Shown here in pieces: positions 28,713 to 36,063 of a stretch of 64,000 nucleotides of DNA. The notes beneath the pieces are model-generated. The model was not told the DNA's origin. It saw nothing but the letters and a program-made list of their open reading frames with translations, and did no database searches. Numbering within the stretch: the first letter of the stretch is position 1; each line of letters begins with the position of its first letter. Made by a program: the position numbers and the translations under genes. Origin of the DNA: an uncultured Gemmataceae bacterium (GTDB lineage: Bacteria > Planctomycetota > Planctomycetia > Gemmatales > Gemmataceae); contig CAVVPN010000003.1 in assembly GCA_963750165.1 (NCBI GenBank), positions 768,001 through 832,000 on the forward strand, written 5' to 3'.

Positions 28713-30065
28713 ATGTCGCCGCTCACCCTGTTCTGGTTCCTGCTCGGCGACGCCACCGCCATCGAAGCGGTCGCGGTCGATCCGTGGGCGCCGCGGGTCG
28801 GCCTGGCGCTGGCGGCGACGACGGGGCTGGCGCGGCATTACGACAGCAAGGATCTGCTGCGGCAGCCGAGGTTCCTGGCGCTGCCGGCCGTCACCGCGGT
28901 GGCGCTGGCGACGCTGCTGTTCGGCCTGCTCTGCCTGGTGTTGCTGATGAAGGGCCGGACGTTGCCGCCGGACTCCGCGGGGTATCAGTCGTTCCTGGGA
29001 ATGTTCCTCTGCACCGCGCCGCTGGCCTGGCTGTACGCCCTTCCGTACCAGCGCTTCCTGAGCCTGGGGGCGACGGTGCGGGCCAAGCTGGCGACGCTGG
29101 GACTGGTCGCCGCCTGGCGCGTGGCGATCCTGGCCCGGGCGCTGACGGTGGTGCTGCACGACCCCACGGCCGGGTCGCTGTGCTTCGTGCTGATGGTCGC
29201 CGACGCGGTCGCCCTGGTGGCGCTGGTGGTGACCAGCAACCCGAGCGATGCCCGCTCCACGCCGCGCGTGGTCAGCGTCATGGGCGGCATCGGGCCATAC
29301 GTCACCAACAAGAAACAGGATGACTTCGCCCACCGGACGGCCGTGACTGTGGGCTGTCTTGGCGTCGTGCTCCTGCCCTTGTGCGTGATGGGCGTGAGCG
29401 CCGCGCCGCTGCCCACGGCTCACTGGCGGGCCTTGCTCGCCGGCGCCGCCCCGACTGCCCCGCCGGCGCCGGCCGTCTGGTGGCTCGCCGGCCTGGCGGC
29501 GCTGGTGTTCCTGGGCCTGGGTTGCTGGACGCAACCGTCCCAGTGGCGGCGCGGCCGTTTCGAGGCGTGGCTGCGGTCGGGAAGGATCACGGAGGCATTG
29601 ACGGACCTGTCGGTGCGCGGCCTGACGGCCTTCCCGCCGCACTGGCAGCCGCCGCCGACCGCCGACTTCCGCGAACCGCCCGGACTGCCCGCGGTGGTCC
29701 GGGCGGCGCTGGAGCCGGCGGTCGCACCGTGGGTGCGCGCCATTTACCTGGAACGGTTCGAGCGTTACCTGAGCCAGCCGCTGTGGTTCTGGCCCTATGA
29801 CGACGAACTCGGCCAGGTGATCGCCGTGCTGCGGCAACTGCCCGATGGCCAGGCCCTCGCCGCTCGGGTGCTGGACGCAGGCGCACAGGTGGAAGATTTT
29901 CTGAAGAAAAACGAAGAGATGGTGCGGAAACTGGAAGGACAGGGCGACCGCCCCGGGATTTCTCTCGTCCAACCGGAGCCGAAAATCACCGAGCAGCGCC
30001 CGGCCCTCCTCGCCGCGCTGGCCGACCTGGCCGGGCGCGGCGATCACCAGCGAGAAACCGCATGA
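28713..30065 (+). CDS. Multi-pass membrane protein of unknown function, translationally coupled to the RT
   Basis: About 7-8 hydrophobic segments and a soluble C-terminus; stop overlaps the RT start (ATGA 30062-30065). Confidence 0.75.
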   Translation: MSPLTLFWFLLGDATAIEAVAVDPWAPRVGLALAATTGLARHYDSKDLLRQPRFLALPAVTAVALATLLFGLLCLVLLMKGRTLPPDSAGYQSFLGMFLCTAPLAWLYALPYQRFLSLGATVRAKLATLGLVAAWRVAILARALTVVLHDPTAGSLCFVLMVADAVALVALVVTSNPSDARSTPRVVSVMGGIGPYVTNKKQDDFAHRTAVTVGCLGVVLLPLCVMGVSAAPLPTAHWRALLAGAAPTAPPAPAVWWLAGLAALVFLGLGCWTQPSQWRRGRFEAWLRSGRITEALTDLSVRGLTAFPPHWQPPPTADFREPPGLPAVVRAALEPAVAPWVRAIYLERFERYLSQPLWFWPYDDELGQVIAVLRQLPDGQALAARVLDAGAQVEDFLKKNEEMVRKLEGQGDRPGISLVQPEPKITEQRPALLAALADLAGRGDHQRETA

Positions 30066-31450
30066 GCACCGAGAACGAGAAGGCCAAACTGTACCGCGAG
30101 ATCGTCCAGCAGACCAACGACAAGGTGCTGCTGGAGCGCATGCGGCTGCACGGCTTCTGGGGCCGCGAGCCGCTGCCGCAGGACCCCGCCGAGGAGGGGG
30201 CGCAGCGTGCCGCCATCGAAAAGGAAATGGCCGATCTGCGCAAGGCGAATTCCCTGGTGAAGAACCCGCAGAAGGCGCTGGCAGCGGAGCGCAAGCGGCG
30301 CTGGGAGGAGAGCAAGAAGCGCCGCGCCGAGAACAAGAAGTTGCGCGCCGCCGAGCAAAAGCAGCGGGCCGAGAAGTATGCGGCGTATCGCACCACCACC
30401 ATCGTCCACGCCGGCGCCGGCGTCAGCGGCGGCCTGCAGAACACTGACACGAACGAGCCGCTGCTGACCGAGCGCGGCCTGCCAGTGGTGCGCGACGGGG
30501 CGGAACTGGCCGCCGCGCTGGGCATCAAGCTGAGCGCCCTGCGCTGGCTGACGTACCACCGCCGCGGCGCCACGGTGGTGCACTACCACCGCTTCGAGAT
30601 CGCGAAGAAGACCGGCGGCGTCCGCTGCATCTCGGCGCCCAAGCCGGCGCTGGCCCACGCCCAGCGCTGGGTCCTCGACAACATCCTGGCGAAGCTCGAA
30701 GTGGAACCGCAAGCGCACGGCTTCGTACCGGGCCGCTCCATCGTCAGCAACGCGACGCCGCACGTCGGCCGGCAAATCGTCCTCAACCTCGACCTGCGCG
30801 ACTTCTTCCCGTCGATCACGTTCCGCCGCGTCAAGGGGCTGTTCCATTCCTTCGGCTACAGCGAACACGTAGGGACCGTGCTGGCGCTGCTGACGACGGA
30901 GCCGCCGCGCGTGCCGGCCGCCGTGGACGGCAAACTCTACTACGTGGCGCTGGGCGAGCGCATCTTACCGCAGGGGGCGTGTACGAGCCCGGCACTGACG
31001 AACGCGCTGTGCTGGCGGCTGGATCGGCGGTTGACCGGCCTGGCGAAACGGCACGAGTTCCAGTACACGCGCTACGCCGACGACCTGACGTTTTCGGGCG
31101 ACAACGCCGCGGCGGTCGGCAAACTGCTGCGGAGCGTGCGGGCGATTTTGCTGACGGAGGGCTTCACGGAGCAGCCGACCAAGACGCGGGTGATGCGGCG
31201 CTCGAACCGGCAGGAGGTGACGGGCGTGACGGTGAACACGCGGCCGAAGGTGTGCCGCGAGGACCTGCGGACGCTGCGGGCCATCCTGCACAACGCGGCG
31301 AAACACGGGCTGGAGAGTCAGAACCGCGACCAGCGGCCGGACTTCGCGGCGTACCTGCGCGGCAAGGTGGCGTACGCGTGCATGGTCGATCCGGAGCGGG
31401 CGGCGGACTGGCGCGGGCGGCTGGCGAAGGCGCTGGGCCAGTCGTCGTAG
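30062..31450 (+). CDS. Retron-type reverse transcriptase (Mx162/type XIII-like, long N-terminal extension)
   Basis: AHGFVPGRSIVSNATPH (region X NAxxH), LDLRDFFPSI, LPQGACTSP, YTRYADDLTFS, QEVTGVTVN (region Y VTG); intact frame. Confidence 0.93.
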   Translation: MSTENEKAKLYREIVQQTNDKVLLERMRLHGFWGREPLPQDPAEEGAQRAAIEKEMADLRKANSLVKNPQKALAAERKRRWEESKKRRAENKKLRAAEQKQRAEKYAAYRTTTIVHAGAGVSGGLQNTDTNEPLLTERGLPVVRDGAELAAALGIKLSALRWLTYHRRGATVVHYHRFEIAKKTGGVRCISAPKPALAHAQRWVLDNILAKLEVEPQAHGFVPGRSIVSNATPHVGRQIVLNLDLRDFFPSITFRRVKGLFHSFGYSEHVGTVLALLTTEPPRVPAAVDGKLYYVALGERILPQGACTSPALTNALCWRLDRRLTGLAKRHEFQYTRYADDLTFSGDNAAAVGKLLRSVRAILLTEGFTEQPTKTRVMRRSNRQEVTGVTVNTRPKVCREDLRTLRAILHNAAKHGLESQNRDQRPDFAAYLRGKVAYACMVDPERAADWRGRLAKALGQSS

Positions 31451-35311: not shown

Positions 35312-35364
35312 GGCCACCGCGGGCTCCTTGAAAGCGGCCGGGTGCCGTCTACAATGCGGGCAGA

Positions 35365-35675
35365 GAGCCGGTAGCTCAGTCGGTAGAGCAACGGACTTTA
35401 ATGGGAGTGCCCGGGACCGAAAGGCCCGAGGTAGAACCGCTCCAAATGCTGGAACCCCCTGAGAGCCGGCGGTACGCAAGGCGTGACAATCTGCCGGATT
35501 GGGCAATCAGCAGGAAAGGCCGACGCGAGTCGGAATCCTCAGAGACTTGACGAGCGGCTCCCCAGCGGGTCAGGCCGGGGGAGGTGGTAAAGTCCAGACC
35601 GCAACGGCAACGGCGGGCGAAAGCCCGTGCGGTAGGTTAATCCGTAGGTCCTGGGTTCGAGTCCCAGCCGGCTCA
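35365..35675 (+). tRNA. tRNA-Lys(UUU) interrupted by a group I intron (exons 35365-35398 and 35637-35675)
   Basis: Acceptor GAGCCGG/CCGGCTC plus discriminator A; D arm GCTC/GAGC; anticodon stem ACGGA/TCCGT; spliced loop CT-TTT-AA; T arm CTGGG-TTCGAGT-CCCAG. Confidence 0.85.
35399..35636 (+). ncRNA. Group I self-splicing intron, 238 nt, no ORF
   Basis: P AAATGCTGGAA, Q AATCAGCAGG, R TCAGAGACT, S GTAAAGTCC; P1 ACUU/GAGU with U.G at U34; ends in G35636. Confidence 0.88.
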
Positions 35676-35849
35676 CTGGTGCCGCAAGGTGCCCGGAAGT
35701 GCCATCAGATGAATTCGCAAGGGGTTGCGGCAACGCAGCCCCTTCTTCGTTTACCATCCCCTGAGTGCCTGCCGATGCCGCGGAATGCCCTTGGTTGCAC
35801 GGAGTTTGTGCAACCAGTGTGCAACCAAAACCGTCTCCGTCGGTCCCCG

Positions 35850-36063
35850 TTGCGGCCAACGATGCGGCTTCGACGGGGCCAGTGGGCAGGAAGCTCGGCA
35901 ACTTCTCGACGGCTCCGGCCAGATCGTGCAATCGGCGGTGCGAGTAGCGTGCGGTGAGGTTGGGGCTGCTCTGCCCGGCCAGTTCCTGTAGGGTCCGCAG
36001 GTCGATGCCAGGCCGGCCGCCCAGGGTCAGGCGGTAGGACGGGACGGATGGATGGCGGGGCAT
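35850..36063 (-). pseudogene. Tyrosine integrase remnant (N-terminal start fused to C-terminal tail)
   Basis: MPRHPSVPSYRL joined to IDLRTLQELAGQSSPNLTARYSH...AVEKLP; box II tyrosine present, His replaced by Gln, core missing. Confidence 0.7.

Follow-up and report, generated by a model that had tools for sequence, protein, structure and literature searches.

A group I intron with a 23S rRNA-intron type of core in the anticodon of a planctomycete tRNA-Lys(UUU) gene

In an uncultured Gemmataceae bacterium (NCBI GenBank assembly GCA_963750165.1), a tRNA-Lys(UUU) gene is interrupted between U34 and U35 of its anticodon by a group I intron of 238 nt. The intron lies in a stretch of 64,000 nucleotides (contig CAVVPN010000003.1, positions 768,001 to 832,000 of the forward strand), the whole of which was analysed and is called the window below. 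An intron in this tRNA had been predicted from the window alone, and our analysis confirms that the observation is real. The boundaries, fold and product of the intron could be established, as could the distribution of introns at the same site and the presence there of two types of catalytic core. The core of the window intron is of the 23S rRNA-intron type, not of the IC3 type, a point that the original prediction did not see, and the 34/35 site of tRNA-Lys(UUU) has thus probably been filled at least twice. Judged by its sequence, the intron is very probably functional; it is presumably expressed and catalytically active, and its ancestors presumably moved by homing.

Structure of the split gene

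The split gene spans positions 35365-35675 and does not encode CCA. Its parts and immediate surroundings are as follows.

35328..35355, plus strand: candidate sigma-70-like promoter (TTGAAA, 16 nt, TACAAT), a consensus match only, 10 nt 5′ of the tRNA
35365..35398, plus strand: tRNA-Lys 5′ exon (34 nt, positions 1-34), ending GGACTT, with U34 at 35398
35399..35636, plus strand: group I intron (238 nt, without an internal gene), ending GGTAGG, with the terminal omega-G at 35636
35404..35408, plus strand: internal guide sequence GGAGT (3′ strand of P1), with G35405 opposite U34
35409..35432, plus strand: P2 hairpin with a GAAA loop; 4 of its 9 pairs change on both sides; absent from the 23S L1917-type intron of the same genome
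35437..35595, plus strand: catalytic core with rRNA-intron-like motifs; helices P3 (35437-42/35552-57), P4 (35447-52/35507-12), P5 with extension (35456-35503), P6/P6a (35513-35538), P7 (35542-48/35590-95) and P8 (35558-35583)
35596..35636, plus strand: 3′ domain of tRNA-intron type; closing helix (35598-603/35628-33), two small hairpins, then A-G-omegaG
35637..35675, plus strand: tRNA-Lys 3′ exon (39 nt, positions 35-73), which begins TTAATCC and has its discriminator, A73, at 35675
35680..36030, minus strand: remnant that corresponds to the C terminus of an integrase-like gene and points at the 3′ end of the tRNA (context, outside the intron)
35719..35744, plus strand: intrinsic-terminator-like hairpin, 44 nt 3′ of the tRNA; one found against a shuffle mean of 0.8, weak alone

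The insert has the core of a group I intron, with P3, P4, P6, P7, the guanosine-binding site and the joining motifs, and P2 to P9 can all be drawn by hand. P1 consists of the pairs A31-U, C32-G, U33-A, U34·G and U+1·G, and so has a U(-1)·G wobble at the 5′ splice site, placed at U34 as had been predicted: in an alignment of 12 homologues, G stands opposite U34 in all 12 rows, and position +1 forms a C-G or U·G pair. Across this alignment, 96.7% of the cells are paired, and both sides change in 15 of the 74 pairs, compared to a mean of 4.9 in shuffled versions (0 of 500 shuffles reach 15) and to 1-5 in slid controls; these controls are lenient, as the drawing of the structure was based on the window copy and the 12 rows are kin. 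P4 and P7 are invariant among the homologues, and the peripheral helices covary. When an E-value threshold is applied, RF00028 matches positions 35389-35617 with 34.1 bits (E 6.4e-7), and the minimum-energy fold of the precursor has a z of -2.5 and does not recover the pseudoknotted core. With this match, the helices and their covariation, the coordinates and anatomy first proposed for the 238-nt insert hold.

Two details of the ends deserve mention. The intron was correctly expected to end in G; this omega-G is G35636, in a register set by the motif G-Y-A-N-G, which ends 107 of the 123 unique introns that we found at the same site (see below). The same comparison finds the GAG guide in 119 of the 123. 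On the other hand, a P10 between the first intron bases (UAA) and exon UUA, which the original prediction thought possible, is off the usual register of this helix. On the guide side, exon UUA can pair with UGG at 35402-35404, in a weakly conserved P10 that has three pairs in 77 of 119 introns, two pairs in 9 and one in 33. With its 238 nt and a P6a that is a 14-nt hairpin, the window intron lacks the endonuclease ORF of a mobile intron.

Standard annotation misses or miscalls this tRNA, as had been anticipated. Default runs of ARAGORN and Rfam over the window did not detect the split tRNA-Lys and found only two other tRNAs; the default Rfam scan misses the intron because its score lies below the gathering score of 50. 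The RF00028 search suggested at the outset thus yields a match with a score under the threshold, and the suggested ARAGORN intron search (-i) locates the exons and the 238-nt insert, but names the gene tRNA-Asn(gtt) i(34,238). When relaxed, ARAGORN -i makes thousands of false split calls.

Distribution of introns at the same site

Orthologues of the window intron occur in 10 of the 251 other genomes of the family. A search with a junction pattern found at least 120 loci in GTDB and 34 viral loci, and none in 400 other genomes sampled evenly from the phylum, with a pattern that does not allow T before the last G. From 170 loci that were parsed, 133 had both exons, 127 of these were unique, and 123 were left when four mis-parsed short ones had been dropped. 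Among the matches listed, these 123 introns belong to Actinomycetota (56), Planctomycetota by title (15), the window's family (11), Pseudomonadota (8), Poribacteria (5), Gemmatimonadota (3), Bacillota (1) and Chloroflexota (1), with one unassigned and 22 viral. The same-site intron is thus patchy but widespread, being present in seven phyla or more and also in contigs of phages, and the notion of Lys(UUU) as an unusual host is not supported.

In annotated phages, matches are confined to four records of Acinetobacter phages, over 75 nt of the core, before a terminase gene and outside any tRNA. In one of these phages (KM672662.1; L235:1100-1800), two unannotated group-I-like cores stand in tandem just before the annotated CDS of the terminase large subunit.

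Two core types and their origin

Sorted by core motif, 64 of the 123 introns resemble the introns of tRNA-Leu(UAA), tRNA-fMet and CAU-anticodon tRNAs, and 59, including the window copy, resemble 23S rRNA introns. The window core groups with that of the L1917-type 23S intron of the same genome and with those of two L2449-type introns found in relatives (we read the site numbers off the flanks), and its type may tentatively be labelled IB4. Its P4, P6 and J6/7 motifs are not those of the Leu, fMet and CAU introns, from which a 100/100 branch divides it, and two further helices extend beyond P5 (35466-35497), a region in which IC3 introns lack the P5a-d extension. It also departs from the L1917 type, for which a lack of P2 is characteristic, in having a P2 that covaries.

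In a core tree of 79 columns and 64 rows (the distinct rows left after 18 of 131 were unparsed and three more, out of register, were dropped), the split into two lineages is supported at 100/100 and a single clade of Lys introns is rejected (p-AU 5.9e-5). Since this tree is unrooted, has few columns, with 32 of its 61 branches open, and was built after the motif split had been noticed, we claim no direction of transfer.

Although separate invasions are our preferred explanation for the two core types, they might instead go back to one ancient tRNA-Lys intron that diverged, that swapped its core with an rRNA-type intron to become a mosaic, or that gave rise to the rRNA introns. We regard this alternative, which concerns the origin only, as possible but rather unlikely. 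Both Lys core types have a guide sequence, a P2 and a 3′ domain of 40-60 nt in common, which favours a single or mosaic origin, although a compact 3′ domain might also be convergent in tRNA hosts. Moreover, the 41-nt 3′ domain of the window intron is nearer to that of the Leu intron (z 6.9) and to those of fMet introns (z 5.0-6.5) than to those of 23S introns (z 2.2, -0.9 and -0.2), and the 23S rows nest within those of the rRNA-like Lys introns, a nesting that lacks starred support in a tree without a root. The core itself points the other way, with 78% identity between the window and the L1917-type intron; the margin for the rRNA type is modest, as identity is 68-70% for the two L2449-type introns and a median of 67% for the IC3-like Lys introns. 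The choice is between an invasion of the tRNA by an rRNA-type intron, followed by convergence, and a recombination of core and frame.

A LAGLIDADG-like ORF in an orthologous intron

In the relative G136, the orthologous intron (L203:1325-1873, minus strand, C34) is 641 nt long and contains a LAGLIDADG-like ORF with a single motif. This ORF starts in the P6 loop, spans P7, P3, P8 and P9, and stops at the last bases of the intron. Its match to LAGLIDADG_3 (E 1.9e-4) falls just under the curated cut-off. The protein has only one other close relative (72%, without context), and a scan of metagenome contigs found none. Four viral members have ORFs of 128-193 amino acids at the same place. The window intron is best seen as a gene-less member of a once-mobile lineage, presumably a homing intron whose gene was lost.

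A bolder reading, which we offer tentatively and would not ourselves expect to hold, is that the window intron is a natural mosaic ribozyme, in which the core of an rRNA-type homing intron (P3-P8) sits in the frame of a tRNA intron (P1-P2 and P9), and that it was spread by a LAGLIDADG nuclease with the Lys anticodon as its target, U34/U35 being an insertion hotspot.

Probable expression and splicing of the split gene

The split tRNA-Lys gene is probably transcribed on its own. Upstream of it is a response-regulator/GGDEF gene, and a promoter scan found one sigma-70-like site upstream of the tRNA, against a shuffle mean of 0.1. We propose that the host gene is a housekeeping tRNA-Lys(UUU) of the planctomycete, split between U34 and U35, and that splicing would take the usual two steps. 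The exon end ACUU would pair with the guide GGAGU, setting U34 opposite G, and free guanosine bound in P7 would attack after U34; then omega-G would occupy the pocket, and the 3′-OH of U34 would attack after omega-G, restoring the loop CU-UUU-AA. As U34 is both the wobble base of the splice site and a base that is normally thiolated, splicing must precede wobble modification.

Small shares are held by 20 soil or plant RNA runs, and contigs of four soil RNA libraries were compared with the locus. Contigs from these four libraries reach across the intron and its two unspliced junctions, and one contig is identical over 35554-35648. RNA contigs also have skip joints at 35398-35637 and 35397-35636, either of which could stem from intron-free Lys or Asn genes of other organisms.

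The demand for this tRNA can be gauged from codon usage: AAA accounts for some 19% of the codons for Lys (12,109 of 62,834, counted in ORFs that were called roughly), and the CUU anticodon reads AAG only. In the window's genome, a second Lys(UUU) gene, the only intact one, is part of an array of 16 tRNAs (C10:88560-90125), so that splicing may be dispensable there. Among ten intron-bearing relatives, Lys(CUU) is present in all ten, and an intact Lys(UUU) is absent from eight (by pattern, with one mismatch allowed, in genomes that are 87-96% complete) and present in two (G252 and G256).

The intact array copy and the Rfam score under the gathering threshold might suggest that the intron is catalytically dead or dependent on a lost protein, and that the split gene is a pseudogene whose function the array copy covers. 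We consider this very improbable, since the exons are identical to the intact gene of a relative, P4 and P7 are invariant while the peripheral helices covary, a promoter-like site is present, and the eight relatives mentioned above have no other Lys(UUU) that could be found.

Identity of the spliced tRNA

Two cuts satisfy the U(-1)/omega-G rule: one after U34, which gives the anticodon UUU (Lys), and one after U33, which gives GUU (Asn). The original prediction favoured the former, and the comparison with other genomes agrees. An intron-free allele in the relative G062 has no mismatch to the 34/35 product and one to the 33/34 product. At 13 of 15 loci checked, the intron-free alleles read CTTTTAA, the other two holding a different insert (see below). 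In the 107 same-site introns that end in G-Y-A-N-G, with the last G in the window's register, N is G in 81, A in 18 and C in 8. Counting all 123, the penultimate base, before the last G-TTAA, is A in 26 and C in 12, and these 38 ends exclude a GUU cut. This evidence comes mostly from the other core type, as only 6 of the 59 introns with an rRNA-like core end in A-G or C-G, and all 11 family orthologues end in G-G. The 85 introns ending in G-G are not independent evidence, as the parser demanded a 5′ exon ending in TT and a G-TTAA junction. A cut at 35/36 is excluded as well, because 6 of the 11 family members have an intron that begins with C.

The discriminator fits Lys as predicted: the spliced cloverleaf combines U34-U35-U36 with A73, and lacks the G34 and G73 of tRNA-Asn(GUU), a G discriminator being found in both of the two intact Asn(GUU) genes of the same genome. 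When the exons are joined at 34/35, a join that we set beforehand, ARAGORN names 125 of the 127 pairs Lys(ttt). An automatic score of the best P1 register favours U34 in 58 of 127 introns, ties in 58 and favours U33 in 11, and we regard this naive script as non-discriminating. A cut after U33 at the penultimate G, yielding tRNA-Asn(GUU), is therefore almost certainly wrong, even though it too satisfies U(-1)/omega-G and leaves a 7-nt loop, is the choice of ARAGORN -i, is allowed by the G-G ends in the family and corresponds to the skip joint 35397-35636 found in two RNA runs, for in the conserved P1 the partner of U33 is A instead of G, and the discriminator, the intron-free alleles and the 38 incompatible ends all oppose it.

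A tRNA-shaped insert at the same bond

In 2 of the 252 genomes of the family, G114 (L236:111-254, C346) and G177 (L238:131-274, C164), the same tRNA-Lys allele is cut after U34 not by the intron but by a 71-nt insert that is itself shaped like a tRNA. The outer exons are intact, with 0 and 2 mismatches, respectively. The inserts score 49.9 bits (G114) and 43.1 bits (G177) against RF00005, have an anticodon loop of 3-5 nt and end in a discriminator and C. They differ at 12 positions, at which two pairs are changed on both sides and two on one, and none of the 22 pairs is broken. By pattern, G114 (82% complete) has no other Lys tRNA, and G177 has an intact one. Were tRNA-processing nucleases to excise the insert and the halves to be re-joined, it would be a new kind of bacterial intron, but this strikes us as a long shot.

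In a sample of the class, a pattern for nested tRNAs gave 8 matches in 401 genomes, only that in G114 looking real by eye, and about four similar nestings occur among 120 viral pattern matches. In the viral contigs L338, L366, L372 and L391, tRNA-like elements lie in the anticodon loops of other tRNAs, and at least three of these elements end in CCA.

Genomic context

The remnant at 35680-36030, which by its motifs we take to derive from an integrase gene, has 59% identity over 148 amino acids to an intact ORF of 462 amino acids at the same place in G136 (L203:6-1394), presumably an integrase as well; part of this match falls in tRNA/intron DNA common to both. Because the ORF is intact at this place in G136, the split tRNA-Lys is probably an integration site. 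In another relative (G012, L202:1013-1057, minus strand, C98), there is a lone tRNA 3′ half that starts with the last seven bases of the intron, as if the attachment site had taken in the intron end. Elsewhere in the window (30062-31450, plus strand), an ORF of 462 amino acids with a YTRYADD motif looks like a reverse transcriptase by eye.

Relation to known introns

Group I introns in tRNAs are a well-known kind, and the widespread Lys 34/35 site has probably been catalogued already. Williams 2020 (bioRxiv 10.1101/2020.01.27.920355) raised the number of intron-split bacterial tRNA classes from 4 to 21, and the window intron fits the naming rule of the class Lys.3Ug (tRNA-Lys, loop position 3, U(-1), omega-G), a term that is absent from the running text of that work, table and figure apart. 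Like the tRNA introns described there, the window intron has U(-1) and omega-G, interrupts loop position 3 (34/35), has a U·G pair in P1 and is shorter than 400 nt. However, the four classical classes are all IC3, and the core of the window intron is of another type.

Its closest counterpart by position is the IC3 intron at 34/35 of tRNA-Leu(UAA) in cyanobacteria and plastids (Leu.3Ug), with which it has in common the loop position, the exon end GGACTT, the GAG guide and the compact 3′ domain (z 6.9). The two differ in host tRNA, have 60% core identity and stand on opposite sides of the 100/100 split; the window intron also has a P5 extension, whereas IC3 introns such as that of tRNA-Leu are without P5a-d according to the available text of PMC11835236. 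[quoted passage not shown]

By core, the window intron is most like the L1917 type, with the same P4, J5/4, P6 and J6/7 motifs, 78% core identity and a complex P5, but it has a tRNA host, a P2, another 3′ domain and no ORF. The available text of PMC1995217 describes 23S L1917 introns of Synechococcus C9 and Thermotoga subterranea that have a single-motif LAGLIDADG gene and no P2, and in Synechococcus the ORF runs from P6 through P7, P3 and P8 into P9, which is also the layout of the ORF in G136. In the same genome as the window, a 23S L1917-type group I intron (C4:1018635-1019370) carries a LAGLIDADG ORF in P6 (LAGLIDADG_1, E 1.7e-17). Relatives (L004, L013, L042, L043, L044 and L045) have group I introns both in tRNAs with a CAU anticodon, where they sit at 33/34 and 36/37, and near position 2449 of 23S rRNA. 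Like the tRNA-Lys lineage, the tRNA-fMet intron is an anticodon intron lineage with a homing-endonuclease gene, but its site is 33/34 and the nuclease is of another family: according to the part of PMC1995217 available, the fMet intron of Synechocystis encodes I-Ssp6803I, a PD-(D/E)XK enzyme.

In our literature search, no title or abstract opening named a group I intron in the tRNA-Lys of a bacterium, or a nested tRNA in bacteria. A 2025 preprint on tRNA introns of Patescibacteria reportedly describes non-IC tRNA introns, and may cover the core type of the window intron. The available portions of PMC3984707, PMC6125680, PMC11835236 and PMC13168695 do not mention a Lys intron.

Implications

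In standard annotation, genomes with the Lys intron appear to be short of a tRNA that reads AAA, or are wrongly credited with an Asn gene. A tRNA intron with a LAGLIDADG gene would join the PD-(D/E)XK case, as far as the latter is described in the available text of PMC1995217. Leu(UAA) and Lys(UUU) make use of one four-base guide, GAG with exon CUU, and two unrelated core types are found at the same site, so that one can test whether such introns move between rRNA and tRNA hosts. If the mosaic and hotspot reading is true, the U34/U35 bond of this one tRNA allele has four natural states, within a single family and elsewhere: empty, or filled by an IC3-type intron, by the mosaic intron or by the 71-nt tRNA-shaped insert.
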